From NCBI GenBank assembly GCA_015680685.1, contig MNCI01002555.1, positions 196,971 to 260,970 of the forward strand: 64,000 nt of DNA, in the 5' to 3' direction. The notes beneath the pieces were generated by a model. It searched no databases. It worked only from the letters and a program-made list of their open reading frames with translations, and was not told where the DNA came from. Position numbers and translations under genes: made by a program. This document shows, piece by piece, positions 4,369 through 61,084 of the stretch. Each line of letters starts with the position of its first letter. Positions within the stretch are counted from its first letter, which is position 1. The stretch comes from Gnetum montanum (taxonomy: Eukaryota > Plantae > Gnetophyta).

Positions 4369-4394
4369 TAAACTTAAGGTATGCACCAGTCCTA

Positions 4395-12034: not shown

Positions 12035-12047
12035 ATAGCCCCTTTGT
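12035..12047 (-). promoter_or_regulatory. Polypurine tract of element B
   Basis: Minus strand ACAAAGGGGCTAT immediately before TGAAAC. Confidence 0.8.
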
Positions 12048-13560: not shown

Positions 13561-13589
13561 GTTACCTTGCATTTAAGCAAAGCTAACAT

Positions 13590-20600: not shown

Positions 20601-21940
20601 GTGTCTCAAATTTTACCTTTGTCTATTGTATTATGTTTAATTCATTTTTTTTGCAGAGTACGCAGTTCTGATAATAGTGGCATACCTTCATCAGCAACTC
20701 CTACTCAATATTGGGTTGAGGCTCCTGACAAATTTGCCTTTATGGAGGGCATTATCAATGATATGATTAGTCTCTTAGAGAGAATTGATCCTGAGATCGG
20801 TACGTCATTGTTGTTACACAGGGATTGTTGAACTGTCACATTATGTTATGCTATTACGTATAATTGCTATTTCCATGTTACAGCATCTTGCCTCAAATGG
20901 GATCCCAAAGAGCCCGTCGACATAGACGCCACCCCTGAACCTTCACTAGAGGTGATCGAAGTGCCACGCAGTCTTTACGATGAAATGCGTAAATGTTTGT
21001 TGCATTCAGCCTGTTCTCTATGGGAGAGTCAGAATGTCAACGAAGACCTCTAGAAGAGGCTGCAGAAAGTAGAAAAAGAGAAAACAACCCTAACTACTAG
21101 GGTTTAAGACCTTGAGTCCAAAAACAAATTTCTGCAAGCTCAAGATATTAATGACGAGAATTGGCGGACAACTATGATTGACTATGCCCACTATTGGACA
21201 ATCGTTAGGAACAACGTTCAAGCTAGCTGTGAGCTCATCAAGCAACAGATTCAAATGGATCTCCTAGCCCAGAAGAACCAAGACTGGAAGGACTTCAGCG
21301 TGAGGGTACAGGAATGGGGGCAGGCATAGAAGAATCATAAACACATGTATAAGCAAGAATGTGCCGCCTATCGTTGACATTACAAAGATTCCATGGTTGA
21401 GGTGTGGTCCCTCTGGCTATTCCTCGATGTCATAGGTGCTTCTAGAGCATATGAAAAGTTTCAGGAGCAAGTGATAGTGAGTGCTTCCCTTGAGAGAGAG
21501 ATGACCCTCCTTGGCGAGGAGACTACTGTCCCTTCCTTTTTCCTGAATCACCGAGATGGACCCCTGTGGAAAAGGGGAAAGAAAGGCTGGAACTGATCTA
21601 GGAGATGGCATTTGGGCAGAGCTCATTGAGGATGAGATTATGCAATGCTTGTTAGTCTGCCTAGAAAAAATTCCCTTCGTGGCTGATGCAAGACCATCAT
21701 AGGTAAGCTACGTTATTGTTGTATTATTCTTACGCAAGATTTTGACGGTGACGCTAACGTTTTCTTTATGTCAAATTATAGGATCAACACGGAGAGGATC
21801 CCCATGAGGAGGAGCCTCACAAAGAGGATCACCCCCATGAAGAGAATCCCCATGAGGAGGGTCCTCATGAGGAAAACCCTCATAAGGTAGATGTGGTGCT
21901 CGATGATGCAGATGGAGGTGGTAATAAAGAGGATGCGTAG
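17605..21940 (+). pseudogene. Element B antisense multi-exon accessory gene (FCP1/NIF-like domain, plant-transposon-type domain, coiled coil, acidic PHEE tail)
   Basis: Approximate exons: 17605-~17721 (MAPKNERK; tentative), 18266-18715, ~18780-19048, ~19149-20197, 20322-~20580, 20657-20799, 20884-21702, 21782-21940. Most junctions are GT..AG, and several match D and C in position. Confidence 0.75.
21798..21885 (+). repeat. 15-bp coding tandem repeat (PHEEx)
   Basis: CCCCATGAGGAG-type units. The phase-0 last exon reads DQHGEDPHEEEPHKEDHPHEENPHEEGPHEENPHKVD with no stop. Confidence 0.75.
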
Positions 21941-22291
21941 CGTAACGATATTGGCCAAAAATCTTGTTGTAATGAAAGGGAATAAAGGATAATCTCTTTG
22001 GTTTTTTAGACATTTATGAAAAGGAAAAAATGCATTGTTAGAAAGGTTAAATGTTTTAGGACACTGTGGGCCTGTGATAGTTTAAGGCCATTTTGGGCTG
22101 GGCAATCGCACATGAAAAAGAATAAACAGAATCACCAGTTTTAGGCCGTTGTGGGCCGTAAATAGTTTAAGGTCATTTTAGGCCATGGTGCATACAAAAA
22201 ATTGTAATGATAATGATGTGATGAGAAAGAACATAAACTATGTAATAGTAAAGAATGTGGACTGATACAATATGTCACGCTAACGTGTTTA

Positions 22292-25200: not shown

Positions 25201-26023
25201 ATGATGTTGTAGTCAGATTTACTACCTGCAAGGCTTGATGTTGATGATGAGCGAGATGAGACATCTACATAGGCTATGCTACCAGGGATGACGTACTTGG
25301 AGCCCACAACGTGGTAGTGGTAGGTCCTGCTATTGATTGTGGTGGTATGAGAGTGAAAGCTAGGATGAATACAGGAGTTGTGTGTAATTGCGAAGTGGGT
25401 ACTACGTGCACATATGGTAACGTAGATGTAGGCATGCTATGCAATGGGTTCACTAACTGCGGCTGCAGAGGAATGGTCTGTGAAGGGATGACATCCAGAA
25501 AGGGGATTGGAGAAAAGAAATGCTGATGTGACGCATGCGCAACATGGTCGACGGTAGATAACAATAACAGCATAGTAACCATGAAAAGAAGATTTTCTGG
25601 GGACGTTGTGGAGGGAGGAGCCATAACAAAGCTAGCATGAATGCCTCCCTCAGAGTGGGCATCTAGGTCCTCTTGCCCATCGTTGAATGCTTTGTCATGG
25701 AACACCGCATCTCATTGTTCCATTGACACCCTGGCCATTAACAGTTGATCCAACATCCACTGTTGCTGGTCTGTAAGAGGTATGGAAGCATTAAGTGAAG
25801 GAATGAATTCCTTCCCATTGTAGTAGATGAACTCATATTCGCATTTCTCTTTGAGTTCTTATGGGTACACAGGAAGATTCGCCATAAGCTTGGCACAAAG
25901 GAAATTGTAATGTTCCATTTGTTGAACGTGTCCCTCAGGCTCTTTGTTTTGAATCCTAAGGAATTGGCGTAGCTGCACCGGGCTAGTCGGTGGCTCGATA
26001 GTAGCAGGCGTACCCTACGTCAT
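22292..26023 (-). pseudogene. gag: gag-protease of element B
   Basis: KYNGEGDPNTHL...SLTGKALDWY (retrotransposon gag); YFCDYHQLCGHDTD (Zn-knuckle-like); IRRVHVDDGATTNVIP (aspartic protease). Stop TAG at 22292-22294; start position tentative. Confidence 0.9.
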
Positions 26024-26298
26024 CAAGGGGGTTTTCGAGACTAGCGGTGGGAACGACGGTAGTTATCGCAACCATTCTCTATGTAGTTAGAAGGAAATGA
26101 TAACAAGGATAAAGGTCTTAAAGGCAAAAGAGGGCCAAAGGAAAATGTGGGCTTTCTATCCTGCTGGATTCCAGAGGAATCGTCAAAGTGACCGATCTGT
26201 ACCACATGATCACGTAAACGACCACGGAGGTATCACGTTTACACTAGTCGATAATGGGTACAAATAGCTTACAGGACTACCCGTGAAATGAAAATCAA

Positions 26299-26324
26299 AG
26301 GTTCAAGCTCTCCTTCTAGGGCCA
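26299..26324 (-). promoter_or_regulatory. Primer-binding site of B, complementary to the tRNA-Asn 3' end
   Basis: Plus strand AGGTTCAAGCTCTCCTTCTAGGGCCA versus recalled plant tRNA-Asn(GUU) end ...GGTTCAAGCCCTCCTTCTAGCGCCA; 6 nt from the LTR. Confidence 0.8.
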
Positions 26325-26330
26325 TAAAAC

Positions 26331-27597
26331 TTTAACAATGGAAAATGTCAGTTGTTGGAAACACCAAGAGGATTTCCATGTACATAGTTCCAACCTCGAA
26401 TCCATGAGAGAGCTGTGCTAAAGAAAATGAATCTGAGGTGCCTTGAACAGTCTTGTCAATCAAATAGGAACTTAGTTAGTAAACTCGTTAACAATCATGT
26501 AATGAGGTGACAATTTAATACAAGAATATAATATAATATTGATTGACAAGAAAACAAGATCTGCTCCAAGATCTGATCCTGAAGGTAATGAAGATGATGT
26601 AAACTATGCAAAATGATTGTACAATTAAATGTAAATAGGATGCAATGAATTGGACTTGGAACATGTGAGATCCCGAGATCTAGGATCCACCTTATATATA
26701 AATATAATGAATACAATGGGATTTACAAGTGGACTCCGGTTTGGACGAAGTATCCATTACCAACAAGAAGCTATTTAGAGATTAAACAAGCAAAGATTAA
26801 TCTACCTTGTTCACTAGCCAATTTGGGTGTAAGGAAATCAGACTCGAAGCAAAGTTTTTGCTAACTTAAAATCTCTGGCCAAAATCTTCTCTTTTCCACC
26901 CTTGATGCTTTTTTGTTTCCAACTCTTTCTTGCCTTCTTTGCCAATCTTTGCCAAAAACTGCCAACCCTTTGAGTGTTGTCTGCCGGGGTATTTATAAGA
27001 TTAGGGTTAGGAGAAAAACACGATTTAGATGATGTGTGTCCTAGGCTCACAGAATGTCATTGACCTGATATGCTATAGCTGAGGCTTGTGAAGTTATGTT
27101 GTGCTACGTTCTGAAGCATAGTATAGCGTAACCACCCTTTTCTTTAGCGTTGACGGACTCTTCGGTAGCAAACTGTCCCATGGCTATGCTTTGATATGCT
27201 GTGAAGTGTATCCTAGCATAATGACCACTACTACTTAAATTTTGTTATCCTTGTTGTTGTGGCTAACTCAACTCTGCTGCTCCCTTTATGCTACATTATG
27301 CTTCATTACACTGCATAGCGTAACGTGGCGTAATACGCCAAAAGTTAAGATATTTTGGAACATGACTAACTTGCAAAGTTGGAGTGTTTTCACGATGCAT
27401 CCCTTGTTCTGTTCTATCCTCCTAAAGTCTATTATTCTGAGCTACGTAGCATAGCATAGTAGGCCCTTAGCCAAAAAAGAAAACTTGCTAAGATGTACTC
27501 ATCACCCAGATGTTTTAACGTTGTACTTATGAAGATCCTTGCCTAAACTTCAAGACTTTGCTGAATCACCAAGGTCTCAAAATTTCACGGTGTTTTA
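26331..27597 (-). repeat. 5' LTR of element B
   Basis: Direct repeat of 10775-12034, followed by TSD GACAT. Confidence 0.95.
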
Positions 27598-27602
27598 GAC
27601 AT

Positions 27603-29699: not shown

Positions 29700-30020
29700 A
29701 CTAGGCCATTGCAAGCCATAGTGACTATTGTTAGTTTAAAGCCTTGATGGGCCTCATGCCAGTTTAAGGCCATAGTGGGAGGACCAATGCTAGTTTTTGG
29801 CCATTTCAAGTTGTGCGTTGCCAATTTTAGGCCATAGTGAGCCATTGTTATGGGGTTAAAGGTGATATGACTTGCTAGTGTTAGGCTGTAGCAAGACATA
29901 GGTAATCTAATTTAAGGCCATGATGGGCCACTATTATAGTTTAAGGCCATTCCATGCTACAGTGATAGTTTAAGGTCATTCTAGGCTACAATGATAGTTT
30001 AAGGCCATTTTGGGCCACAT
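29700..30020. repeat. Degenerate tandem array (AGTTTAAGGCCAT core) between the gag-PR stop and the antisense gene 3' end
   Basis: At least 8 AGTTTAAGGCC-like units; homologous arrays at 22060-22190 and 39640-39995. Confidence 0.75.
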
Positions 30021-33574: not shown

Positions 33575-35264
33575 TGAAACATTATCAAATTTGGAGCTCC
33601 CAGGTCTTGACCAAAAATTTGGCTAAGTTTCAAAACTTGGAAAATTTTTTCTAAGTGTTAAGACTATGCTCTCATTGCTGGGACTATGCTCTAGAGCATA
33701 GTTAGTGTAATTGACATTGACAATCTAGATTTACAAAATTCTTCTAAATGTCAATAGTAGCTACAAATGTTTTGAAGTGTCCTGACTATGCTCACACTAT
33801 CGGGACTATGCTCTAGAGTGTAGTTAGCCTTGGGATGATCAATTTTGCAAATTTTCCTAAGTGTTAAGCTAGAGGTTGCTGAGCATGTATGGGATGGATG
33901 AAACAACCTGGTAGATTTTCTAACTTTTGGTACTATGCTTCAAAGTATAGCTAGTGTAGTCTACATGTAAGAATCAAATTTTCAAGATGTTTTTATGTTT
34001 TTTGGCTATGCTCCCCTTGCTGGGACTATGCTCTAGAGTATATTTAGCATAGCCAACACTAAACTACACTTTTTTGCCAAATTTTCCTAACCCCTTGGGC
34101 TACACTCTAGAGTGTAGCTAGTGTAGCCATGTGGAACTACCTCTAGAAGCTTCCAAAACTTAGCACTAGCTTGCATCTCAACTTCATTATTCCTTCAGCA
34201 AGTAAGACCAGTAAGTTTTGTCTAATTTGCATCCCTCAATTAACCCCAAGATGTACCTATTCTTAACACCACTCAGAAAAGTGGGCATCATAGTCTCGGA
34301 GCATAGTCTCCAAGACTGTACTCTCTTGCACTATTTTCAAGTACCTTGTGATCTATTTAGCACTCTTACATGCACTATGGGTAGTGTATTCATAGTATAG
34401 TAGTTTCATAGGGTCCATTGGAGCACACTAGTAGAACACCATTTTGATCCACTAGGAGCATAGCTAGGATCAGCATAGTCCCAACTACACCCTTTGTCAT
34501 GTGGTGCCTAATCCACGATTCATGCTAATCCTATCCCTATAAACACCCAAACACTTCATGTTCTAGGGGTTGACGAATCAAAAGCAAGATTGGCATTTTT
34601 CAAACATAGTTGACATCTTCATTCAACAATTAGCATTTTGGCTTTCCAAGCACCCACACATCCGAGCACACTTAGCACCTTGATAGACTTTGTCATACCA
34701 TTGGACATTGTTGCATGCTGCCTAGTGATTTTCACACCTTCAAATCCCCTAGGACACTATGGTAGCCAAATCAATAAGCTTAGGCTTCATGGTGGATGTT
34801 AATCTTCATAGCTAGACACCTTGAGACTATGACTACGCTACCTACTATGCCTATTTGTACACTACATACCTCCTCACCTTTTCTTTATAGTTGACTACAT
34901 TCCCCTCATTTGGGGTGCTTCTATCTTATATTTAGCTTGCATTCTATGCATGTTTCACTTTTTTGGCATTTTACTCACATTTTTCACTATTCATGCATCT
35001 ATTTGCACATTTGCACCTCCATTTTTGTGCTTAAAACTTTGACTACACTCACCTTCGTGAGCACTACAAATGCCATGGACACCACATAAACACATTAAAA
35101 CACATTTTTTATAACACTTGTAAGTCCTAGTTCAATCAACAAGACCATCCTAGGCACCCTAGTTCCATTTTCCAACAAGCCCTCATGTTGGAGTAGGGTC
35201 AAGGCTATGCGATCGTCGACCTCTTAGAGTACTATTCCAACCTCCAACATTTTTGGTTGATATA
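33575..35264 (+). repeat. 5' LTR of element C
   Basis: Begins TGAAAC; aligns with 59422-61084; TATA CCTATAAA near 34536. Confidence 0.93.
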
Positions 35265-35270
35265 GTTTTA

Positions 35271-35288
35271 TAGAACTAGAAGGAGGAC
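35271..35288 (+). promoter_or_regulatory. Degenerate tRNA-Asn PBS of element C
   Basis: TAGAACTAGAAGGAGGAC resembles TGGCGCTAGAAGGAGGG; 6 nt after the LTR. Confidence 0.7.
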
Positions 35289-39639: not shown

Positions 39640-39995
39640 CATAGCCCACCAAGGCCTAAACCTAGCAATCTTTCCCCTTTTGTTGCATGGCCCAAAATGG
39701 CCTTAAACTACCAGCATGACCCACCAAAATCTAGAATTAGCACACATGCTTGAGAAGGCCTTAAAATACCGCATGGCCCACCATGGCCTAAAACTAGTAG
39801 CCTTTTCCCATTTTATTGCATGGCCTGGAATGGCCTAAGACTACTAGTGTGACCTGCCATAGCCCAAAACTAACAACACTCTCTATTTTAATACATGGAT
39901 TGAAATGGCCCTAAACTATCAATGGGGCTTGGTATGGCCTAGAACTCTTAAAAAATTATCTACATACATGGAACAAAATGGCCTAAAACTAACAA
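39640..39995. repeat. Tandem array (ATGGCCTnAAACT core) in element C
   Basis: Multiple GGCCTTAAACT and GGCCTAAAACT units. Confidence 0.7.
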
Positions 39996-40178
39996 TCACT
40001 TCACATCAATTCATTGCACTATCAACACTTAACACACAACAATACACATCATATAGAAACAAATCCACTATATTCCATAAAAGGATAATCTTACATGACA
40101 TGATCATCCATACAACAACATGCAAAGATACACAAAAGTAAAAAAAATTCCCAATGGTAAGGCTACATTGGGATCTAC

Positions 40179-43100: not shown

Positions 43101-43599
43101 TTAGTAGATAGCAAATCTAGCATGGACAATAGCAATGGAAAATAATGAGAAAATAGTAGTATATAGTTCCAGGTGTATTTTGGAACATGGTATGCACATG
43201 CATAGTAATGGAAAGGGTGTTGCTCCTATTGTAACAAGAGAACTTCGGTGTTCCATAGATTCTAGCTAGGGGACAAGTGCCCTTGGGGCCTCAACTTGAA
43301 CCACTTGCTCAACCATCATTGGTCATGGGTTCATCAGACATGAACCTCAATATGTCTCGGTTGGCCCCAAGTAGCAATGTCTCAATGATGGTGGCTGCAG
43401 CCTCCACTGCTAGGTGTGACCAATGATCATATTTAACTACTATAGCAGGAATGTTAGGAACTTAGATGTTCCCAACTGAAACCATACCACCTGATGATCC
43501 AACTTCATATCCAGTGCAAGTGTGTTGGACACGGGCTTAGTCACGTAGCAAAGGATGCTGACAATCTCCATGATGATCAGGATAGGCTTTAGCAACACT
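40179..43599 (-). pseudogene. Element C antisense multi-exon accessory gene
   Basis: VLLKPILIIMEIVSILC...VVWFQLGTSKFLTFLL...LARIY..PKFSCYNRSNTL; EEGTKFNWASFITTRLQAKI; PWVEMLDKFGFMEGIVEDM. Last exon 40256-40179 is 78 nt, the same length as in D. Confidence 0.75.
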
Positions 43600-44957
43600 T
43601 TATTATTGACGACCATTTGGGACATGACCACCAACGAGTGTCCTCGAACAAGATTTAGGTGCTTGCTAGTCTTTGGCAACACCAAGGCCCAGATACCTCC
43701 AAATAGACTCAGTAGTTAATGTGAGTATGTATGTGCAATTGTGAAATATGAAACGATTGCATTGTGTGTAAACTACAAATGACTTATCTTAAAGAGATTC
43801 AACCAACTTTGCCAAGTACTGTGAGTTGTTGAGAGTTCCTATTTTGTTCAATTTCCTAGTCTACGTGGTCCTTATAATACCTACTTGTAACAAATAAAAT
43901 TTTGCAAAAACATTTAAGCACAACTCTATGAATCTACTTCTAATTTTCCCCAGAGAAAGAAATAGTTCCACAAGAAAACTAGAAATAGAGCAAGATTCAA
44001 TGGAAATAGATAGAAAACAAAGCAGATTTGCGCAGACCTCAAATATTTAAACAAGGTAAAATGACACGAGTAAACAATTTAGAATAAAGCTATCCCAAAT
44101 TCAATAACTATGAATTGTTCAAACTTCCACGGCTCAAATAAGCAATTTCTTCAAGACAATCCTACTATGCTACCAAAAAATTGTTGTGTAAACTACCACG
44201 TACGAGACTCCATTTTGGCTAGATAATGGATGTCAACAATTGCATTCAATAGAACCTTCAAAAGACTTGACAATTTTTGATTGAACTACCACGGAGATTC
44301 ACTTTAAAGATAAAAAGAAGCTATTCTGGTCCCATCAAAATACAAAATATTTTCTGAATCCTCTTGACTATTGAATCATTCAACGACATGACTACAAGTA
44401 GAGGCTCTCTTACAACAATCTCAAAAGCAATTCTTATACATTGCATAATAACAAAATTCACTACTAAAATGCTCTTAAGGTTTTCAAACACAAGCGCTTC
44501 TATGGAAAAATTTTAATAGAAATTTTCTATTGGGCAACAAGAACAATAAGAGTAATCTAAAAATCTCAAAATTACTTGCCAAGGATGATACTATCTAAAC
44601 CACTAGCTAGACAATTTAAACAAAATAAAAATAAAACATAACTCACAGGACTATGACAAAGAGGCTGAAATCTTTTCTTTAGTAAGTCATCTTACAAGCA
44701 ATCTTTCACAATTTCTTCTTTACAATGCTCTTCTCCTAAGACTCAAAGTGTGTCTCCAAGTGAGAGCCCAAGTGTTAGCTAGTAGCCTTTCAAAGTGTAG
44801 TATCAATGTCTTCTCCCCAGTATGATCTCCAAAGTGTCTTGTCCTTCCTTCCCCCTGAAGCCTTTTTATAAGGTTGAAAAGGTAGGTAGGTAAGTTACAA
44901 AATATCTTGGGTGGTTATAACCACCATAGAGATAAAAAAGCTGCGAGTGACAAGTGT

Positions 44958-45020
44958 CCCATTCAATTGCCAAGTGTCTTCATTCAATTGCCAAGTGTCT
45001 TCATTCAGTTGCCAAGTGGT
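44958..45020. repeat. 21-bp tandem repeat x3 (CATTCAATTGCCAAGTGTCTT)
   Basis: Visible directly, and as WQLNEDT repeats in the ORF track. Confidence 0.85.
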
Positions 45021-46486
45021 CACCATGGAGATAAAAAAGGTTGCAGTTGACAAGTGTCCCATGTAAGTGACAAGTGGCCATTGTGGAGATAAAGAGGTTG
45101 TAGTTGACAAGTGGCCTTTGTATTGGTTACAATATCATAGAAAATTAAAATACAATCACTAAGTTACATAGAAATACAAGCTATAGTTGCAACTTATTCC
45201 ATACATATATATCCTCTTTACTTTGCTTTTTCTTGGAAATATAGGAGGTGTCGGTTGGATGGTATTATAAAATCATGCAATCTAACCCTCAAAAACACAT
45301 AAACATTTTTACCACAGGGCCTTTGTTTATTAGAGATTTTCTATTTGATTTGTTCTTTGTGAAGTAAAAAAAATATTCAAGCCCTCTGATGATCTAGAAA
45401 CTGCATCCACCAAGAAGCTGGAGTAGAGCTTTGGGAAAGAATGCATGTCGGAAAGCCTGTCAGCATGAACGCTAGAACAAAAAAAGAATAGGAGATCTGC
45501 AAAATCCGAGTTCCCTACAATAGCAAACTACTTACTAGAACCATTTTATTCAAATTTAAATCCTGAAACTCCCCTTTTCGCAACGATCCACTCCAAAAAG
45601 AATACAACTTCCACATGAGATCTTGCATCAGAGAAAAAACTATAAAGAGGGTTATCGAAGAGAATATTGGACAACTTGATGGATCAAGATGGGCACCCTT
45701 GAACTTTGTCAGGAATCAGAAAGAGTTCTGCATAATTTCCACAAAAATTCACAGTTTTGTTTCCTGCATCTCATTTCTCACATGGGTTTACTAACGGTAG
45801 TCTTTTTCTATCTACAAAACCATAGCAGAGCATATGACGCAGTTGTTGACCTGACGAGGGTTTTCTTTGGCGCAGGTTTTGGTGACTTCAGCTTCGGTTT
45901 AGGGGCGACGATGATACTAAGGGAGCTTAGAAATGCATTGTTGCAATGTATCATGCTTTGTTGGAGTAGCTCGTATGTGGTCATGGCAGGAAACTAGCGA
46001 TTGCTATTTCTTGCTTGATTTCCTCAAGTCGTTTTAGTCGATTTTGCGGTTTTGCATTTCCGATTGAATATCACGTGGGTAAGGGTGTAACGGTTTTGTG
46101 GTTCTTAAAATAGATTTTGATTGGTGGTTTACATGATAAATTTCCCATCATACTGATTTTCGTTTTCCCCAAACAAATCCTACCCTACGAGGTGGACAGG
46201 TGTAAGTGACTGCGACGTCGATTCCCAAGGTGACGCCCAAGCCCAAGCCGATGCCGATGCCAATGCCGACACTTTTCATCCTTAGTGGCCACCCATGACA
46301 CCATGTCGCCATCGTCAACATCACCTCCTTAATTGGCACACAGGTGCTGCTAAAGCTAAGCATGACTCTGTTATCCTTGTTGATGTTGATGAACAGATTA
46401 TCAACATCTTCCGTAGGACTCATTGCTCCTTCAAATAAACAGAAAAGGAAAAGAGATGAAACAGCAAAAACCCTAGCACAGAGGGT

Positions 46487-47058
46487 TTAGCCAGAACTAA
46501 ACTTAATTATGGCCTTAGTGCCCTTAGAAACAACATGTTTGGCTAGCTCACCAGGAAAAATGAGCTTCATGGCTCTGAACCTCGCGAGAAGAAAGTGTAT
46601 CGCGCTTGGTGTAGCAAGTGAGCTTGGAAGACGCATTCGCAACTTTCTCAAAAATGTCAGTGGAAAACAAATTCATGATGCTCATGGCCTTGGATGAAAT
46701 GCCAAGATCTAGATGCACCTACTTCAGAACTTTGTAAACATAAACCTTGTAAGACTCCACAAGCTTGCACCGGACTTTGTTCCAGGTTTTCGGCCATGCT
46801 TGCGTTCACCGGATTCCACTTTCACGATCTTTTTGCACCTGGATTTCATGGCCTTCTCCCTCTCTTTTGTCTATACTTCCATTCCTTTGCTTTATAGAAT
46901 TTTCTTTGTTACTGAGTGTCTTTCAAAATATCCAACTTCAACTCTTCTCCCAGATAACTCTATCCTTGGAAAAATTTAGTTTTTCATTGTCTCAACTTTT
47001 CTCTCTTCAGTGACCTTAGCAGGCAAGATGTTTTGTGCAGATGTGAATGAAGACACAT
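46487..47058 (-). pseudogene. H2B: Histone H2B (variant-like, long N-tail) pseudogene
   Basis: Minus strand: [89 protein letters not shown]. One internal stop and one frameshift in the core (46487-~46765), plus a frameshift just upstream. The N-terminal extent is tentative. Confidence 0.93.
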
Positions 47059-47920
47059 AGATATTGAAAAATTTCACTAATATTCTAATGGGACAGTTCA
47101 TACAAACATTTTTTCATGAAAATCTCTAAACTGTTATTGTAGTCCTTGCCATTATTAGTAATATGGAAAATATTCTTGTACTTTATCTGCAAACTCCTCA
47201 AAATATTTTCTACCACAAAGGATCATGTTATACGTAGCAAACCCACTTCTCCATTTCAATAGTTCTATTGAAATATTTTGAAGGTTTCAATTATCTCATA
47301 TCTCTGTTGCATGAAATGGACAAAATGTGCCAACATTTATAATTGCAAGCCAATAAACAAACACAATTTTAGTATATAATGGATGGACTTTGGCAAAAAT
47401 TCATTAATCCATACTTAGTGAAAAATTGACATAACATAGTGTAACTTAGAAAAAAAACCTAGAGCCCCCTGGGCCTTGCAAGTATAGGACATCAACATAC
47501 ACATTTGACATGTTTGGTACTCCCTAGGGTACAACATGTTTAGCATAGTGCTATCATTTCATTTCATGTGTTTGCACATTTTGCATTATCTTAGCTTGCA
47601 CATTTAGCAATTTGGCATTGTTTTGATTTATAAGTTAGACATTATCGCACCCTTAGCATTGTTGGCATTTTTACATTCAGTAGATTTTTTAAAAATCTTC
47701 TAACTCTGGTAGCATAGTTTGAAGCAATCACACAAAACTCTAACTCTAAGCTACCTCTAGGCGCATAGTCCAAAATACCAAATTTTCTAACTCTAGGATA
47801 CAATCCCAGTGAGTGTAGGCCCCCAAAATTTTAAAGAATTTTCAAAAATTCTCTAAATATTGGCTACGCTCCTTGGGAGTGTAGCACCCTTGTGCTCCAC
47901 CCTCCCCTTCCACCCCCCCN

Positions 47921-50010
47921 ACCAAGGGTAAAATGCATTTATATACCCTTGGAGATCACTTTCAATTTTTACCTTCCAGGGAGCATAGCCCTAAAAATGA
48001 TGTTTCTATATATATAGCTACCTACATCGCATCTTCATGCCTCTTACCATCGTGGTTGCTACCATAGTGGTCCTACCATTGTGCCTCACAGCATCACCCC
48101 ATCACACACCTTGTATTATAGGTAGCAATAGTCCCCAAACCCTTGCCTCTACCACATAGAAGGTAAACCCTTATCAAATGCCCCACTTCATGGGTAGTGG
48201 CCTTATGGCCACTACCAAACCCTTGCAAAAAAAATGAACAAAGTTACCCCCATCACACCTTATCTGCAATGTGCCTTCTTGGCTGTCATCAATGCCTTGC
48301 CCTCACCCATGCCTCAAAAAAGCAAACAAAAAATTGAAAAGAGTAGAAACCATCTACTTCCTCTATGACCCCATGGCGACAAATCTTGATAGCCACTACT
48401 AAAATATCCATGTCCCCTCCACACCACACCCACAAGAACAAAACCTCTCAATAATGCACATCCTAGTTGGCCACCACCACTGTCATAATGATGTGTGATA
48501 GGAATGACCCTTGTCATGGTAGGGCACCATGGCAAGCCATGGCCCAAAACCCTCATTCATCAAAAAGTGAAACCCCTACCTAGCATGCACTCCCTCATGG
48601 CAATGATGGCCATAGTGGCCATGGTGGCAGTGGCCCCTACCAAGGCAAGGAACCACCCATAAAACCTCAAAACCTCGAAAATGCCTAAGTGTGAAAGCCC
48701 AAAGGGATAGGAAACAATGACAAAGGAGGTGAGCATAGCAGTGCACTTGGTAGTTAGTGACATTCTCCTCTCCTCCATGCATGCCTACAGTAAGCATTCC
48801 AAGACTCACTCTCCCTCCTTTACGTTGGCTAGGTTGGGGTGTTGGCATCCACTTTGGTACAACATCTTTGGTAGACTATGCTCTTGCAACCGCACTATGC
48901 TCTAAAAGTTCATTTTTACCTTTTGACATTGATAGGTTTACCAAGGGTAAAATGCATTTATATACCCTTGGAGATCACTTTCAATTTTTACCTTCCAGGG
49001 AGCATAGCCCTAAAAATGATGTTTCTATATATATAGCTACCTACATCGCATCTTCATGTCTCTTACCATCGTGGTTGCTACCATAGTGGTCCTACCATTG
49101 TGCCTCACAGCATCACCCCATCACACACCTTGTATTATAGGTAGCAATAGTCCCCAAACCCTTGCCTCTACCACATAGAAGGTAAACCCTTACCACATGC
49201 CCCACTTCATGGGTAGTGGCCTTGTGGCCACTACCAAACCCTTGCAAAAAAAAATGAGCAAAGTTACCCCCATCACACCTTATCTGCAATGTGCCTTCTT
49301 GGCTGTCATCAATGCCTTGCCCTCACCCATGCCTCAAAAAAGCAAATAAAAAATTGAAAAAAGTAGAAACCATCTACTTCCTCTATGACCCCATGGCGAC
49401 AAATCTTGGTAGCCACTACTAAAATATCCATGTCCCCTCCACACCACACCCACAAGAACAAAACCTCTCAATAATGCACATCCTAGTTGGCCACCACCAC
49501 TGTCATAATGATGTGTGATAGGAATGACCCTTTTCATGGTAGGGCACCATGGCAAGCCATGGCCCAAAACCCTCATTCATCAAAAAGTGAAACCCCTACC
49601 TAGCATGCACTCCCTCATGGCAATGATGGCCATAGTGGCCATGGTGGCAGTGGCCCCTACCAAGGCAAGGAACCACCCATAAAACCTCAAAACCTCGAAA
49701 ATGCCTAAGTGTGAAAGCCCAAAGGGATAGGAAACAATGACAAAGGAGGTGAGCATAGCAGTGCACTTGGTAGTTAGTGACATTCTCCTCTCCTCCATGC
49801 ATGACTGTAGTAAGCATTCCAAGACTCACTCTCCCTCCTTTACGTTGGCTAGGTTGGGGTGTTGGCATCCACTTTGGTGCAACATCTTTGGTAGACTATG
49901 CTCTTGCAACCGCACTATGCTCTAAAAGTTCATTTTTACCTTTTGACATTGATAGGTTTACCAAGGGTAAAATGCATTTATATACCCTTGGAGATCACTT
50001 TCAATTTTTA
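47921..50010. repeat. ~1020-bp near-identical tandem duplication (2 copies plus a ~50-bp partial) beginning at an N
   Basis: ACCAAGGGTAAAATGCATTT at 47921, 48940 and 49960; few SNPs between copies; N at 47920. Confidence 0.92.
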
Positions 50011-50214
50011 CCTACCCATTACTATGCTCAATAGTGCTGAGCATAGTTGGGATGAGTGTAGTCTCTAGAGTTATAAAATTTTTGGTTTTCCTAGTAGTCT
50101 CTATACTTAGAAAATTTTAAATTTTTCTTATTGCCCAATGGGCACCTAAGCCAATTTTTCTTCTCTAACGCACCAAACCTCACTCTAAAAAATGTAGTTG
50201 GTGCATCTAACCTT

Positions 50215-50460
50215 TCGCTATGATGTTAAACTGGCACATTTAACCATCCACTACAATGTTAAACTGGCACATTTAACCATCTACTATGATGTTAAAATAG
50301 TGCATTTAACTATCCACTATGATGTTAAACTAGTGCATAACTATCCACTATGACATTAAACTAGCATTCAATAGTCTATTAAGACATTAAACTAATACTT
50401 TTCAGTCCACTAAGACCTTAAACTGGCAACCCCATGGCCTGTTGAGGCCCAAAACTGGCC
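50215..50460. repeat. ~31-bp tandem array upstream of pol (CTATGATGTTAAACTGGCACATTTAACCATCCA-like)
   Basis: About 8 successive units, degrading rightwards. Confidence 0.85.
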
Positions 50461-50609: not shown

Positions 50610-53600
50610 ATGTCTATGTACGAGCATATTCATTCACCTCTGGTACTCACCGGGCCACATGGTGATCTCACGCGATGCATTGATTTGCAATGTTTGGACC
50701 TTGAGCCCATAGCCTATGATGAATACATAACATCTATAGATGCACTTCTAGACTAGCCAGACCATTTGATTAGGGCTCTAGATCTAGAGGTAGGTGACAT
50801 CACCAAGGATCCCCTCATTGAAGTCCCTATAGCAACAACTAGTGAAGAGGCTAAAACATTAAAACATAGTTCTTTATTAGAACTTAAACATGCCCAAAGC
50901 ATCACAAGAGTGCTTAATGAAAACATCAAGGCATTCACATGGTCTTATGATGACATGCTAGGCCTCAATCCTGATGTAATGCAACGCAACATAATCCTTG
51001 ATCCCAACATAAAACCAATTAAACAAAAATCCCGTAAGGTTAGGCTTGAGGTGGCATTGGTAGTTCACATTGAAATCACCAAGTTTTACAAAGCTAGTTT
51101 CATCTAGTCCATTGAATATGCAGATTGGATCTCCAACATCATGGTTATGCCCAAGAAAAATAGAAGTATACGCATTTCCATAGACTTCTAGAACCTCAAC
51201 AAGGCAACCATTAAAGATGATTTTCTATTGCATAGTATTGATCAATTGGTTGATACCATGGCCGATCATGCCTTGTTGTCCTTTATGGATGGGTTCTCAG
51301 GGTACAACCAAATTCAAATCAACCTAGAGCACCAGCTCAATACCATGTTCATGACCTCTTAGAGTACCTTTTGCTACACCATGATACCATTTGGACTCAA
51401 GAACGTAGGAGCAACTTATCAATGAGCTATGATGTACATCTTTAGTGACTACCTTTAAGGTTTTCTCAATGATTACATTGATGATATAACAGTTAAATCC
51501 ACGACATTACACAACCACACAAATGACTTAAACCTTATGGTCAAATGCTACTTGAAGCATGAAATTAGGCTAAATCCTAAGAAATGTATCTTAGGCATCA
51601 AGACAAGCCACATGCTAAGTTTTGTAGTATCTAAAGTAGGCATACATGTAGACCTTAATAAGGTTAAGGCCATTAGCAACTTAGCACCACTGGCCAATCT
51701 TAAGGAGCTATGAGGGTTGCAAGGCAAATTGTAATTCATATGATAGTTTATTGCATGGTTGACCAACAAGTTGCTGCTAATGCAATACCTGCTTAAGAAG
51801 AGAGTCCACTTTAAGTGGATAGCTTAATGCTAAAATGCATTTGACAACCTCAAATAGAAGCTGGCTCAACTTCCAATCGTCTACCCTCTGCAAGAAGATA
51901 AACCATTTTACATCTACCTTGCTACCTTAGACACGTCCATTTTCTCCCTGCTTTGCCAAAAGTGGGAGGATGGTACTAAGGTCCTTGTTTACTACCTTAG
52001 CCATGCATTAGTGGCCTATGAAGAAAAATACAATGATGTGGAAAAGACTTTTCTTTCCTTAGTCTTTGCACTTAAGAAGTGGAGGCATTATCTTTTCTAT
52101 AGCCAAGTAAACATCATCTACAAGAGTAATGTACTCTAAGCCATTACAACAAACATTTACAAGGGCGGGCACATTACATGCTGGAAAGTAATAACTATAG
52201 AGTTTGACTTGCATTACATTTCCCAAGCATCAAAAAAATGTCAAGCAATAACCACATAAGTTATGGCCTCACCAGTCGATGATTGAGCAAAGATAGATCT
52301 AGAATTTCCAGACAAGCATGTCACTAGCATAAGGCAAGTGCCTAGCAACTTGAAGGCACTTTTACACTTCAATTATGCTTTAACCTCCCAAAGGGGTAGT
52401 GCTAATATCATAATCATGTTCCCCTCTACAGAGATCTGAGCCTTCATGTATCATTTTGCATTTCCATGTACTAACAACATGATAGAGTACGAAGGTCTCC
52501 TCTAGGGTATCTTAGCAGCTTGTTACCTAGGAATACAAAACCTAGTAATCTAAGGTGATTTTCAACTAGTTGTCAACCAAGTTATAGAGGTTTATGCTTG
52601 TAAAGCCCAACACTTGAAGCCTTATTGTGACTTGGAAAAGCACTTGGTCAAGTAATTTGCAATTTCTTATGTTCAACATATTCCCTATAATGAAAATGAC
52701 ATTGTTGATGCATTATCTATGTTAGCTATAAGCATTGCACTTGAAATATTCTGCACATTACCCACCATAATGGTAGATTGCACTACGCCTATCCCATAAA
52801 CAACCAACATTGCATCCATATCCATAGTAAGCACAACCACACAGTAGAGTGGTACAATAGCATCAAGTCATACATTATATAGGGTGAACCTCCATAGCAT
52901 CTAACCACTACTTAAAAGGATGCAGTGCAGAAGAGATCATGGTAATATGTTATTGTAGGTGATAGAACATTGTGTTGATGATCCTATGATGGCATACTAT
53001 TAACATGTGTTAGTGATAGCAAAGTGTAGATGATCATTGAACAAGTCCATGAGGAACTTTGTAGAGGCCACATAGCACCCAAGGTAATGGCAGCAAAGAT
53101 CAAACTCTTAAGCTACTATTGGCCTAACATGGAGTTTGATTGTGTATCCAAGGTCAAGATGTGTGATACGTGTCAATAACATGGTAACCTAATGCACATG
53201 CCACCTACTGAGCTACATACAACGTAGATCATGTGGCCATTCCAATGTTGGGGGTTGGACATCATAGGATCAATAATGCTCACATCCTCCACAGGGCATA
53301 GTTTTATCATAACCACCATTGAGTACTTTACAAAGTGGGTAGAAGCTATTCCCCTTAGGAGAACAACATCATAGTAGGTTTTCAAATTCATACTTGACAA
53401 CATAGTGTTATGTTTTGGTCTACCCATGACTATAGTCACTGATAATGGACCACCGTTTAGTAGTGTTGATACTAAAGCCTTTTGCAAATGCTTTAGAATT
53501 AAACATTTCTTTTCTTCACCCTACTACCCATAGGAAAATGTCCAAGAAGAGACCAAAAACAAAGTCATCATCAATATTCTAAAGAATATTCTTCACAACA

Positions 53601-54072
53601 TCAAATGATGATGACATAAGCAACTAATCTACGCACTCTAAGCCTACTGCAGGACACAAAGAACTATAATAGGTAAGATATCGTATAGCTTGGTTTATGG
53701 ATATGAAGCCATTTTGCCTCTTGAATTGTAGGTCCCATCACTCTGTGTAATCCTATCAAGCTTCATCAATAAGGCTCAAAATGACAAGTTGAGAACCATT
53801 AACCTTGACTCAATAGAGGAGGAGCACATGTAGGTGCTTTGTTAAATCAAGTTGTTCAAACAAACACAATGGCAAAAGTATTTTCACAATCAGCATCAAT
53901 GTCTAATCAAGGAGGGGGACTTGATCTTCAAGGTTATTTGTGAACTAAATAGGAAGGGCCTTTCTTGGTTGTCAAGGCTTATGGAAATGGAGCATTCAAT
54001 CTTGCTAACCATGATGACAATGAATTTTCCAATCTGGTAAAACATTCATACCTGAAGCTATAGTATGCTTAG
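50610..54072 (+). pseudogene. pol: pol cistron of element C (RT-RH-aRH-INT, no protease)
   Basis: AFTWSYDDMLG, MDGFSGYNQI, PFGLKN, YIDDI, aRH TNN..EYEG..GD, INT WGLDIIG..FTKWVEA; stop at 54070-54072. ATGs at 50610 and 50616 follow the acceptor at 50598-50599. Confidence 0.93.
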
Positions 54073-54197
54073 CATGTAATGCTGCATCACCAACAAAGCA
54101 AGGTAAGTAAGAGTCTATTATGACTATAAACTAGCATAGATTATCCTCGGGCCATGCCACTAAAACTAGCACCCACAACATAGTCTGCTATGACTAT

Positions 54198-57100
54198 TGT
54201 TGGCGATCGTTTGGGACGCGACCGCCAACGAGTGTCCTCGAATAGGATTTAGGTGCCTGCTAGTCTCTGGCAACACCAAGGCCCAGATACCTCCAAATAA
54301 AATTAGTAGTTAATGTGAGTATGTGTGTATGCTGTTGTGGCGTGCAGTTGTGAAAAATGAAACGATTGCATTGTGTGTAAAATACAAATGACTTATCTTA
54401 AAGAGATTCAGCCAACTTTGCCAAGTACTGTGAGTTGTTGAGAGTTCCTATTTTGTTCAATTGCCTAGTCTACACAATCCTTATAATACCTACTTGTAAC
54501 AAATAAAATTTTGCAAAAAAATTTGGGCACAACTCTACGAATCTACTTCTAGTTTTCCCCAGAGAAAGAGATAGTTCCACAAGAAAACTAGAAATAGAGC
54601 AAGATTCGATGGAAATAAGCAGAAAAGAAAAGAAAGCAGATTTGTGTAGACCTCAAATATTTAAACAAGGTAAAATGACACGAGTAAACACTTCGCAATA
54701 AAGCTATCCCAAATTCAATATCTACGAATTGTTCAAACTTCCAAGGCTCAAACAAGCAATATCTTCAAGACAATCCTACTATGCTACCAAAAATTGCTGC
54801 GTAAACTACCACGTACGAGACTCCATTTTGACTAGATAATAGATGTCAACGATTGCATTCAAACAGAACCTTTAAAAGACTTGACAATTTCTGATTGAAA
54901 TACCACGGGAATTCACTTTAAAGATAAAAAGAAGCTATTCTGGTCCCATCAAAATACCAAAGATTTTCTGAACCCTCTCGACTACTGAATTGTTCAACGG
55001 CATGACTACAAACAGAGGCTCTCTTACAACAATCCCAATAGCAGTTCCCACACGTTGCACAATAACAAAATTTACTACTAAAATGCTCTTAAGGCTTTTA
55101 AACACAAGCGCTTCTATGGCAAAATTTTAACAGAAATTTTCTATCGAGCAACAAGAACAATAAGAGCAATCTAAAAATCCCAAAATTACTTGCCAAGGAT
55201 GATACTATCTAAACCACTAGCTAAACAATTTAAACAAAATAAAAAAATAAAAAACATAACTCACAGGACTATGACAAAGAGGCTGAAATATTTTCTTTAG
55301 CAAGCCATTTTACAAGCAATCTTTCATAATGTCTTTTACAAATGCTCTTCTCCCAAGACTCAAGGTGTGTCTCTAAGTGAGAGCTCAAGTGCTAGCTAGT
55401 AGCCTTCCAAAGTGTGATGTATCAAGTCTTCTCCCGAAAGTATGATATCTTGACCCCCCCACTTTTGAGACCCCAATGTCCTCTTTTTATAGGGTTCAAA
55501 GGTGGTTACATACTTAAAATATCTTAGCTAAATTTTCTCCCAAGTAAGGGAGTTACAACTTACCCATGTAGTTAGGAGATATTTCTCATCAATTTAATAG
55601 GGAAGTTATGTGGTTGGGAAGTTGTACATAAAGTTAGGAGGAATTTATGCTAACACTAATAAATATTAAAAATATTTCTTTTGTAAATATTAGCCTATAG
55701 TATTTTGTTTATTTATTTATTTATTAAAATAAAGCTAAAATCCCCAATTTAATTTAATTAAGTATTTTATTTAGAATTTTAAATACTAAATGTCATGTCC
55801 TTATTAATCCTTGGAAATATCCTGAAAATCCTAAAAATATCTTTTTCCCTTTCCTCAGAGTTACATATATATCTTACACTATGCATACCTAAATTAGTTC
55901 ATTTTAATTTAATTTTCAGAGTTATAGTTAAGGGGACCTTTCTTAAAATAGCTGAAATTCAGGGCATCGTGGATGGTGGTTTTGTCTTGTATTTTTCCTG
56001 CATTTGACATCTGGAATAATGTTATGTCTATTTGTTTCAACAACACCATCGAATCAGCAGGCATCGGCAGTGGCATCAAGTTTGTTTTAACCAAAGGAGG
56101 TAACGTGTTGATTTTATCTTCATCTTGGCAGATGAATATTCAGCGCAATTCTAGCATCCACCAGAAAGGTAACTGTTAATGGTGCAGGTCTCCCTGGTTA
56201 ATCGTATAATTAGCAACGATGCCACTGGATGTAGACGTGTTTCTTCTCTTTTACTGAATCAAGTTCCATTTTGGCTTGTTGATGTGGGACGCAGTAAATC
56301 CACATTTCGTATGAGTTGCAAAGCTTCAATTCTACCACGTTATACCCTTCAAAACCCCATCTCTGCTGGCTTCGGTTTCCTTATCTTCTACCCACAAGTT
56401 GTGGAGTGAGGCCCTGGCCCTGGCTCTTGTGCATGTGTTCAACACCGCAAAAACATTTGTTCACCACATAGGCATAACTGCCGTTGTTGGGGGAGATTCT
56501 TCTTCTAGCAAAATGGAAACCCTGTAATGACGGAGGATATTTTTGAACTCACGCATTTGTCTCTAGTGCCGCTTCAGACTCCTCCTGCTCTGATAACGTC
56601 AATACAATCCACTGTTAAACGAATCCAAATGTGATTTGATGAAAGAACGGGTATTCTTCTGGATTTTTTTTCCATCAGTTGCAGCAGGAGACACTTGGGC
56701 TATGTTTGAATGTTTATTGTGGAATTTCTAACCACAGAAAATAAAGGCGAAACAGAACAATACGTAGTCTGCAACTTCATCCAAGGGCCATTAAATACAA
56801 GAGTTAAATTGAAAACAGGAGAAAAATTAATAAGAGAAAACGACCATGAATTCATTGATCTGTTCTCCATCCTCAAAGCCACTTTGTGCGGGGCACAATC
56901 TTAGCCGCAGCAATTTCATTCATTTTTTCCTTGAAATACCTTGCCAACGCGTACAGTGGATGGAACTGCTCTTTACCGTAAAAGCGTCCGTTGAAATCTT
57001 ACAATGGTGAATTCCGTAAGGTTGATTTTAATTTCTTATTGATGTATTCATGAATGGGGTCAGCTCTTTTTAATCATTAAAGCTTTTCAATTTCTTTTCA

Positions 57101-57323
57101 ATCTTCCCCTCACACAGGAGCATGATAAATTTTCCTTTCCTTGGTATCATCATTTGAAAGTTGAAACACTATATCTTCACCCAACAAATTTCCACATGAA
57201 ACCTATGGCATTAAAATATCAATAGGACACAACCATCATATATTTTTTTATTTAAATATCTTCTATATCTCATTCGTATTTTATCACCTTTGTTGTTCCA
57301 TGAAATGGCTAAATGTGCCAACA
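54198..57323 (-). mobile_element. Family A solo LTR, copy 3 (3126 bp)
   Basis: TGTTGGC...GCCAACA; TSD ACTAT at 54193-54197 and 57324-57328; minus-strand TATAAAAAGA near 55491; no PBS or PPT adjacent. Confidence 0.93.
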
Positions 57324-57750
57324 ACTATAAATTGGCAAAACATGTTTGTTATGATGCTAAATTGACATAGATTAGTTTTCTATGACTATAAACTAGCACA
57401 GAGAGTCTTCTATGACTATAACCTGATGCAACATGTTCACTATAATGCTAAATTGGCACAACAATAGTATGTTATGACTATAAACATACTGTCCTTGGGC
57501 CATGATGCTAAAATTGGCACCCACAACATTCATCTTCCATGATGCTTAAACTGCATAACTTGTCCTTGCATCATGACATTAGATTAGCACAACATTCACC
57601 ATCTGCTACAATTTTAAACTAGCACACAACAATCTACTAGGACTATAAACTAGTACATCATAATCTACCAGGACCTTAAACTAGGTTCATGATATGCTAG
57701 GACCCTAAACTAGCATAGTATGCAGTCTACCAAGATCTTAAACTAGGTTC
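57324..57750. repeat. Post-pol tandem array of element C (starts at 54115-54197, split by the solo LTR)
   Basis: Repeated TATGACTATAAACTAGC and GACCTTAAACTAGG units. Confidence 0.8.
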
Positions 57751-59421: not shown

Positions 59422-61084
59422 TGAAACACCACCAAATTTGGAGCTCCCGAGTCTCAACCATGAAATTTGCTAAGTGTCAAAACTTTTTTAAAAAAATTTC
59501 TAAGTGTTGAGACTACACTCTCACTGCTAGGACTACACTTTAGAGCATAGTTAGCATAGTTGACTTTGATAATCTAGATTTGCAAATTTTTTTCAAATGT
59601 CAATAGTAGTTGTAAATTTTTCTAAGTGTCCTAACTATGCTCACACTACCAGCACTATGCTCTAGAGTGTAGTTAGCCTTGGGATGACTAGTTTTGCAAA
59701 TTTTCCTAAGTGTCAAGCTAGAGGTTGCTGAGCATGTATGGGATGGATGAAACAACCTGGTAGATTTTCTAACTTTTGGTGCTACTTTCCCTGCTATGCT
59801 CTAGATCATAGCTAGCATAGTTTGCATGTAGGCATCAATTTTGCAAGATTTTTCCAAGTTTTTGGGCTACACTTCCCCTATCAGGACTACACTCTAGAGT
59901 GTAGTTAGCGTAGCCAGCACTAAACTACACTTTTTTGTCAAATTTTCTTAATCCCTTAGGCTATGCTTTAGAGCATAGCTAGAATAGCCATGCAAAAATG
60001 CCTCTATAAGCTTCTAGAACTTAGCATTGTCTTGCATCTTAGCTCCAATGTCCCTTTAGCAAGCAAGATTAGCAAGTTTTGTCTCACTTGCATCCCTCAT
60101 TTGCCCCAAGGTGTACCTATAGTTGACACTACTCAGAAAAGTGGGCAACGTAGTCTTGGATCGTAGTCTCCAAAACTATACTATTTTGCATTATTTTCAA
60201 GTACCTTGTGGTCTATTTCACACTCTTACATGCAATCTTAGTAGCATATTCATAGTTTGGCAGTTTCATAGGGCCCATTGGAGGACACTAGCAGAACACC
60301 ATTTTGCTCCACTAGGAGCATAGCTAGGGTCAACATAGTCCCAACTACCCCCTCTGCCACATGGTGCCCGATCAATGATTCATGCTAACCCTAGCCCTAT
60401 AAATACACTAGTGCTCCATGTTCTAGGGGTTGGAAAATCAAAAGCAAGGTTGGCATTTTTCAAACATGATTTGCATCTTTATTTAACAATTGGCATTTTG
60501 GCGTTCCAAGCACCCTTGCATCTAAGCACACTTAGCACCTTGGAAAACTTTGGAATTTTACTAGACATTGTTGTACACTACCTAGCACTCTACACACCTC
60601 TGTAGCTTGTAGGACACCATGGCAACCAAACCAGTAGGCTCAAACTTCACAACGAATGTTAGTCTTCATAGCTAGACACCTTAAGACTATGACTACATTG
60701 TCTATTACGCTTGTTTTTACATTGCATACCTCAACTTTTCTTTATAGTTGACTATGCTTCCCTTATTTGGGGTGATGTTGTTTTCCCTTTAGCTCATATT
60801 TTGTGCATGTTTTACATTTTTGCACATTTTTGGCATTTTACTTGCATTTTTCACTGTTCATGCATCTATTTGCATGTTCACATGTCTGTTTTCATCCGTG
60901 AGCACCATGGACACTGCAGACACCACATAAACACCTTAAAACATGTTTCATCATAACACTTGTAAGTCCTAGTTTGATTAATAAGACTATCCTAGGTACT
61001 TTGCTTCTATTTTCTAGTAGGCCCTCACACAGGAGTAGGGTTAAGGCTATGGATGGAAGGCCTCCAACATTTTTGGTCACTATA
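59422..61084 (+). repeat. 3' LTR of element C
   Basis: Direct repeat of 33575-35264, followed by TSD GAGCT; TATA CCTATAAATA near 60396. Confidence 0.93.

Follow-up and report, generated by a model that had tools for sequence, protein, structure and literature searches.

How can copies of one repeat family be closely alike along one arm, and again in the last letters of the opposite end, and carry between these parts interiors that cannot be aligned, of which at least one holds pieces of host genes? This question is raised by 64,000 nucleotides of Gnetum montanum contig MNCI01002555.1 (hereafter the window), in which decayed Ty3 retrotransposons with reverse transcriptase (RT), RNase H, second RNase H and integrase domains are nested. 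A preliminary description had reported three copies of a long terminal repeat (LTR), two of them with a shared R-U5 part (repeat and unique 5' regions), in which the U3 part (unique 3' region) is made of captured sequence. On balance, we lean towards the reading that these copies are solo LTRs of a very large Ty3/Tat-like family, whose dispensable distal U3 is filled mainly by DNA-level capture and spread by retrotransposition. Two of the copies are complete and the other is truncated by the window start; genome-wide evidence was drawn from public sequencing runs (X numbers below), whose DNA and RNA reads were mapped on copies 2 and 3.

1-1668, minus strand: copy 1, truncated by the window start, with proximal blocks common with copies 2 and 3, a CpG-rich interior at 600-1350 and the conserved tip.
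43604-47335, minus strand: copy 2, whole element, probably a solo LTR, 3732 bp, between target-site duplications (TSDs) TTTAT at 43599-43603 and 47336-47340.
54198-57323, minus strand: copy 3, whole element, probably a solo LTR, 3126 bp, with TSD ACTAT, lying in a repeat array downstream of a Tat-type pol.

The borders of the elements are well defined. Both complete copies (2/2) are flanked by 5-bp TSDs, the chance of two perfect 5-mers being about 1.4e-6, and both flanks of copy 2 match an uninterrupted paralog (9241-8659), on which they lie almost side by side (the right-flank match scores 80, reached by 0 of 200 shuffles), which indicates that the borders of copy 2 are correct. Copy 1 is inserted in the RT of a Tat-type element. 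The TG..CA termini and 5-bp TSDs by which the copies had been recognised as LTRs are both present in copy 3; copy 2 has the TSD and the right-end CA, and its left end reads TA, apparently through decay; of copy 1, the right end alone is visible. The element ends form an inverted repeat of 7 bp. The parts of the family are as follows (here and below, depth is summed contig depth and not copy number, and only a contrast of three orders of magnitude is used).

43604-44829, minus strand: conserved arm of copy 2, putative R-U5, 89% identical to that of copy 3, its terminal hairpin decayed as judged by folding.
54198-55449, minus strand: conserved arm of copy 3, putative R-U5, recognised by alignment and fold, with an 11-bp hairpin (54199-54229) at its end.
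44865-44871, minus strand: TATA box of copy 2 (TATAAAA), a putative promoter element; sharing with copy 3 restarts about 40 bp downstream.
44884-45270, minus strand: U3 block beside the TATA, holding short tandem repeats of a 21-bp unit (x3.3), common with copy 1, contig depth 1.2e4-2.3e5.
47304-47335, minus strand: conserved tip of about 31 bp in copy 2, putative U3 integrase attachment end, depth of the terminal bin 4.5e4.
55960-57290, minus strand: variable interior of copy 3, patchy, depth 300-3100 over 55983-57181.

The arms of copies 2 and 3 (43601-44829 and 54195-55449) agree at 89.4% over 1259 columns, as expected for the shared R-U5 of the preliminary description; their similarity ends about 40 bp downstream of the minus-strand TATA and is back only in the last 31 bp, a tip that is common to all three copies at 84-90%. 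The TATA-proximal blocks had likewise been assigned to all three copies. This holds for copy 1 against copies 2 and 3, where the matches are strong (E 6e-15 to 1e-4) and copy 1 mixes blocks of the other two, and fails for copies 2 and 3 against each other, where a weak match of 47 bp at 74% has an E of 0.12. The U3 lengths first given were recovered (2465 bp in copy 2, 1833 bp in copy 3 and more than 1668 bp in copy 1). The three interiors indeed cannot be aligned: their best local scores (25, 24 and 26) lie below the maxima of 20 shuffles each (30, 29 and 32), whereas a control, the intact LTR pair of the window (10777/26333), aligns end to end, with 1101 of 1289 columns. The TATA of the copies stands where it does in that intact pair, and the terminal hairpin of copy 3 folds at -21.1 kcal/mol (z -3.2). 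The description of the U3s as CpG-rich applies to copy 1, with an observed/expected ratio of 1.07; copies 2 and 3 (0.59 and 0.63) do not rise above the range of copy 3's arm (0.59) and the control LTR (0.73). The interior of copy 1 at 600-1350 is the window's strongest CpG island (GC 48%) and holds a 29-bp unit x3 at 760-846, for which no protein or RNA family was found; no protein match to the copy 1 interior was obtained in Pfam or in the protein atlas.

Sequencing depth mirrors this anatomy. Over 54239-55328, the arm of copy 3 reaches a summed contig depth of 0.36-1.6e6 in DNA run X1, and in two DNA runs copy 3 has a depth of 3-5e4 near the TATA and of about 9e4 at the tip, with patches of 300-3100 across most of the interior. 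Depth along copy 2 drops stepwise from 2.3e5 beside the TATA to 150-900 centrally and rises again in the terminal bin. The contrast between arm and interior implies that any single interior represents a small minority of the family. The copy 2 interior is nevertheless itself multi-copy, since single contigs over it are 5-12 deep, against the central depth of 150-900, and a genomic contig that is 9% diverged crosses the junction at 45659; amplification after capture is suggested by the same observations. A contig of run X16, which carries another organism code, covers 46839-47233 at about 93%. Among the matches listed, parts of copy 3 are present in 20 public runs from 12 studies and 10 organism codes, with no RNA run among them, which has no bearing on expression. 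One X7 contig (depth 11.9) joins 57325 to 54198, that is, a tip and the start of another copy with few letters between them, as in a head-to-tail pair of copies somewhere in that genome.

What fills the interiors? That host fragments lie in this region was borne out in copy 2, where several pieces match transcripts. Of the RNA records, 82-93% of those mapped on the copy 2 U3 continue into unrelated sequence from sharp common loose ends, and therefore derive from donor genes and not from mosaic copies. The pieces are listed here, sense and antisense being relative to the element.

45375-45458, minus strand: presumed kelch-repeat gene fragment, sense, core match 45412-45458; RNA loose ends in X16 and X24 (106 and 83 reads).
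45659-46010, plus strand: antisense piece of an expressed but unnamed gene, in which a 76-bp GT..AG intron (45725-45800) is likely retained; supported by loose ends, a contig and strand in X22.
46062-46129, minus strand: short piece matching an unnamed transcript, sense, right border approximate; 80 X22 reads share one loose end, and the two strands have depths of 30.1 and 0.
46411-46867, minus strand: histone H2B fragment from about codon 30 to the stop (46490) plus about 80 nt of 3' untranslated region (UTR); supported by Pfam, tblastn and X22 reads.
46905-47227, plus strand: piece that in RNA mapping aligns with an unnamed 710-nt transcript contig of depth 92.8 (37 differences, 6 gaps); antisense on weak strand counts.

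The H2B fragment, already recognised in the preliminary description, matches the Pfam Histone family (E=1e-10) and aligns by tblastn at 46867-46490 on the minus strand. It lacks about 30 N-terminal codons and has no poly(A), and its reading frame is broken by one premature stop and by two frameshifts (46571/46572 and 46771, both indels); at 46411, within its UTR, 771 X22 reads exit the window. Its best named relatives are conifer variants at 73-75% identity (Cryptomeria, Wollemia and Araucaria), which points to a gymnosperm host. The donor is a divergent H2B, related most closely to plant proteins that differ from the lower-ranked animal-type matches, and several expressed H2B paralogs with different loose ends occur in X22 and X24. 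For the piece at 45412-45458, the loose ends translate, by eye, to motifs that we take to be kelch-like, and the piece in the window itself has 0 Pfam or PDB matches. The loose ends of X24 at 45659 and 45722 comprise 143 and 126 reads, and an X16 contig aligns over 45802-46010; 45659-45722 and 45802-46010 are counted as one gene. Additional RNA depth occurs at 45442-45613 and 46216-46301. In total, at least five donors contributed to copy 2, one of which (H2B) has database support. Host matches beyond H2B, whose absence the preliminary description had named as evidence against itself, therefore exist. In copy 3, 56528-56963 matches one-strand RNA, sense to the element, and no protein was identified there.

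It should be noted that the naming of the cargo covered some frames and length classes. H2B was the sole Pfam match on 24 frames; of the 85 and 374 candidates in two homolog searches none scored, a profile search of one copy 2 frame against 1.84e9 proteins gave 0 matches, and two protein-atlas comparisons gave no name, with a best value of 0.76 in one and no match in the other. Several candidates were rejected. An ABC2_membrane match at 55962-56115 (Pfam E=0.03) is at about chance level for 37 short frames and was absent in PDB, and six PDB searches returned a best E of 0.13-0.58 or nothing, so that mago nashi, bestrophin and cyanovirin were rejected as well.

By which route did these pieces arrive? 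In the stranded run X22, H2B has a depth of 744 vs 0.35, and the pieces at 45412-45458 and from 46062 run in the same direction; those at 45659-45722 and 46905-47227 lie on the opposite strand (2.3 vs 0.5 and 2.2 vs 0.2; 0.8-3.4 vs 0). Furthermore, the mRNA that exits at 45722 matches the window again from 45811, where 15 of 17 letters agree by eye (chance 3e-5 to 2e-4); the skipped 76-bp stretch at 45725-45800 starts with GT and ends with CTAAC..AG, the X16 RNA contig begins at 45802, and a retained intron is likely. Mixed orientation together with this likely intron favours DNA-level capture, and points to a route on which the preliminary description had been silent; the cargo was likely copied mainly from genomic DNA. 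At the borders of nine segments, compared with 500 random pairs, no TSD, terminal inverted repeat (TIR), poly(A) or Helitron end belonging to the cargo itself was found beyond chance, the border repeats (4-6 bp direct, 3-7 bp inverted) being within the random range. Marks of later insertion, which had been proposed as a counter-indication, are thus lacking at these borders. Nor do the elements resemble Helitrons, as TSDs are present and a perfect-stem scan found 0 hairpin-CTRR-T ends in the three copies.

The strongest competitor keeps the same solo-LTR family and has the cargo enter by RT template switching onto co-packaged host RNAs after first-strand transfer. U3 is the first stretch copied after strand transfer, all identified pieces match expressed RNA, the H2B fragment is 5'-truncated, and four pieces (H2B, kelch, the piece from 46062 and 56528-56963 of copy 3) are sense to the element. 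Template switching has also been proposed for Bs1, for miniature terminal-repeat retrotransposons (TRIMs) and for the BARE-1 LTR swap, according to the accessible sections of PMC13317346 and PMC4717578 (this and the other papers cited here were available in part). Two antisense pieces, one of them likely with an intron, and an H2B fragment that terminates within its UTR without poly(A) speak against it, although antisense or unspliced templates could still explain these features, and both routes may operate. Several points weigh against the reading that we lean towards: the antisense pieces rest on small strand counts (0.8-3.4 vs 0-0.5), the likely intron has a weak donor site, splicing would give a length one base shorter than that of the mRNA, the mapping listed no joint, only H2B among the donors has database support after Pfam, PDB, homolog, profile and atlas searches, the read-based evidence on cargo covers copies 2 and 3, and the cargo of TRIMs and Bs1 is described as exon-only, which favours RNA routes for LTR elements generally (PMC4717578, accessible part). 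We consider that template switching could still account for the sense pieces, and judge it unlikely as the explanation of the whole.

Are the copies LTRs at all? We are fairly confident that they are. Their anatomy comprises TG..CA ends, 5-bp TSDs, a TATA where conservation breaks off, tandem repeats of short unit close upstream of it, and a terminal hairpin. In the accessible part of PMC6317226, 5-bp TSDs are given for 93.4% of plant LTR elements, and Tat-clade LTRs reach about 5 kb. At 54198, 54 X21 reads exit; their consensus is blurred (agreement 0.44) and, compared by eye and with one gap, agrees in 16 of 23 letters with the intact element's spacer and primer-binding site at 26308-26330 (p 1e-4 to 5e-4); motifs related to the primer site also follow other LTRs, at 62011 and 35271. 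LTR identity, which is likely, rests on anatomy and on this blurred primer-binding-site signal.

Other observations count against it. The primer-site signal is a single low-agreement consensus compared by eye after the fact, an X24 loose end at 54198 (33 reads, agreement 0.75) is not primer-like, and the motif is unenriched in the window, its 3 matches being reached by 13 of 100 shuffles. In the window and the mapped runs no two-LTR member, polypurine tract or internal region was seen; a tip scan of viral and metagenome contigs and an arm scan of metagenome contigs found 0 loci each; and in its pattern the mosaic resembles Pack DNA transposons. No loose end at the U3 tip appears among the rows listed, and the RNA mapped on copies 2 and 3 has no site where many molecules begin or end. 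None of the RNA ends at 54700, 54763 and 46466 was accepted as a start site; their loose letters resemble what we take to be a library template-switch primer, which the window itself resembles at 54700 and 54763. An A-run at 55254 was rejected as genomic. The copies are not TRIMs with short paired LTRs either, as self-comparisons found that the two ends are not direct repeats.

These doubts lead to a second competitor, an element of Pack type that would move non-autonomously by cut and paste through an integrase-like transposase, with ends of unequal length (one long, one short) and Pack-MULE-like capture in its middle. Both complete copies (2/2) are solitary between TSDs, depth is U-shaped with peaks at both ends and a central minimum, several host-gene fragments do lie between the ends, multi-gene mosaics in both orientations with introns are the Pack pattern, and, in the accessible part of PMC2774510, no maize LTR element carries fragments of more than one gene. 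On the other hand, the TATA lies at the conservation break, there is the primer-site signal, no transposase domain was found by Pfam in copies 1-3, and an inverted repeat of just 7 bp with a 5-bp TSD falls outside the definition of Pack-type TIR transposons. A 5-bp TSD together with TG..CA fits LTR integrases, and not Mutator, hAT or CACTA, by the TSD lengths of those superfamilies. We rate this alternative slightly below template switching. Finally, ordinary solo LTRs whose interiors were altered, once in place, through nested Helitrons, retrocopies or local repair, and whose mosaics did not spread, would suit a nest of old elements with copies 10% apart and a clade with hundreds of thousands of gene fragments in gymnosperm transposable elements (TEs; PMC13477047, accessible part), but appear very improbable, given that in 3/3 copies the same interval is replaced to within about 31 bp of the tip and nothing of an ancestral distal U3 remains, that border repeats lie in the random range and neither poly(A) nor a Helitron end was found there, and that the interiors are multi-copy with junction-spanning contigs.

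How might DNA-level capture into solo LTRs, the reading we lean towards, proceed? Only the tip of about 30 bp (the integrase end) and the TATA-proximal U3 block would be needed, and anything between them would be tolerated. A break in the U3 spacer would be patched by gap filling from an ectopic genomic template, which would add a 50-500-bp fragment in either orientation, repeatedly. A fragment in the 3' LTR would enter the genomic RNA and thence both LTRs of the daughters, and antisense introns would survive RNA passage because they could not be spliced. Strand transfer between co-packaged RNAs would swap whole U3s onto a common R-U5, which would explain why sharing breaks near the start site; we propose such swapping with copy 1, which combines blocks of copies 2 and 3, as its pointer. 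LTR-LTR recombination would then leave solo copies, which would be methylated and decay.

The state of the cargo is consistent with this end. Compared with X24 transcripts, the copy 2 cargo has A/T at 111 and G/C at 36 of 147 transition sites (202 differing places; p 2e-10), a footprint of methylation. The cargo is likely methylated and decaying by deamination, and protection from silencing, one of the roles that had been suggested for it, is disfavoured for this reason; for copies 2 and 3, CpG richness as a sign of protection was rejected, and the suggested borrowing of regulatory sequence found no support. RNA reads at least 99% alike to the window number 0 of 859 and 10 of 1816 on the copy 2 U3, and 1 of 235 and 22 of 1589 on copy 3. 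The accessible part of PMC13477047 reports no methylation advantage for carriers of captured fragments. Most likely the cargo is a neutral passenger, which is the simplest reading and agrees with that survey. A far-reaching form of 'Pack-LTR', in which one of the genome's largest LTR families, in several related species, would use the distal U3 as a rolling capture cassette, with many multi-gene mosaics amplified, U3/R-swapped and strewn as solo LTRs to become a main source of the gene fragments in this genome and of small RNAs against donors, is put forward only tentatively.

The surroundings of the copies deserve separate mention. An apparently intact Tat-type element of about 16.8 kb (10774-27600, minus strand) carries two LTRs of 1.26 kb that are 86% identical, and its primer-binding site lies at 26308-26324. 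Ty3 pol remnants at 50757-54050 (plus), 1669-4350 (plus) and 14030-16740 (minus) have the order RT, RNase H, second RNase H, integrase, which the accessible part of PMC6317226 assigns to the Ogre and Retand clades, 'found in angiosperm species', giving other domain orders for gymnosperm TatII and TatIII; yet the host is a gymnosperm. A unit of about 1019 bp stands in tandem at 47920-50016 (two copies plus 57 bp, 98.6% identical), beginning at the window's only N (47920), and is either a recent duplication or an assembly artefact. A second repeat pair (33575-35209 and 59422-61051; 78% over 1660 columns) has internal repeats of about 60 bp, and one of its copies is followed by a primer-site-like motif at 35271-35285. 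Degenerate arrays of 29-33-bp repeats occur at 4380-4700, 13200-13550, 29900-30010, 39640-40010, 50200-50430, 54100-54190 and 57330-57750; several lie downstream of integrase remnants, and copy 3 is inserted in one of them.

If the cargo does lie within the LTR, every transposition would double it, and it would persist when a solo LTR forms, an event by which internal cargo is lost. A single abundant family with a fixed capture slot would offer thousands of U3s that could be ordered by shared fragments, and hence access to the route, rate and donor bias of capture, the routes in gymnosperms being called poorly understood in the accessible part of PMC13477047. Repeat annotation that relies on a consensus would also fail on such copies, and pseudogene counts would be inflated by them. 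Our literature search turned up no family in which several host genes form a changing mosaic in U3, nor, among the papers listed for it, the term 'Pack-LTR', subscription titles being covered in part, so that absence is unproven. LTR elements are known to capture genes (Bs1, TRIMs, 425 maize elements and the gymnosperm survey, in the sources as far as accessible), and variable U3s and foreign sequence in an LTR are known as well; multi-gene mosaics inside U3, which that search did not find, would be new.

The family can be compared with several known systems, the cited papers again being drawn on for their accessible sections. Bs1 of maize and gene-carrying TRIMs are LTR elements with fragments of two to three host genes, amplification after capture and 5-bp TSDs (PMC13317346, PMC4717578); TRIM cargo is described as internal and exon-only, whereas that of the window lies in the putative U3, in both orientations and likely with an intron. 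The U3 subfamilies of Tnt1, Retrolyc1 and Retrosol resemble the window in variability confined to U3 on a conserved remainder and in modular evolution, but consist of few versions that differ by substitutions and indels, with host-gene fragments unreported in the sections available (PMC1838419), in contrast to unrelated mosaics of 1.3-2 kb. Cassandra TRIMs (and Helenus/Ajax) likewise hold host-derived sequence inside the LTR, there, as far as the sources go, one fixed and conserved 5S or small-RNA piece used as promoter, here many decaying scraps of protein genes that differ between copies; Rfam gave 0 matches in the window, and Cassandra-type 5S rRNA-like sequence was not encountered. The swap of the BARE-1 LTR with Wis-2 also brought foreign sequence into an LTR, to be inherited by a subgroup, with another retrotransposon as donor and in a single event (PMC13317346). 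The survey of TE capture in gymnosperms counts about 400,000 fragments per genome, LTR elements included, with at least two fragments in 13.68% of carriers; position inside the LTR is untreated in its accessible part, and 'U3 region' and 'within LTR' have 0 occurrences in the supplement (PMC13477047). Similar in their working are Pack-MULEs, Pack-CACTAs and Helitrons, with short fragments of several genes in both orientations, introns kept, and conserved ends around a variable middle. The element of the window differs from them in having no long TIRs or Helitron end, in its 5-bp TSD and in its presumed mobilisation via RNA; it works as a Pack element does and is likely built into an LTR.

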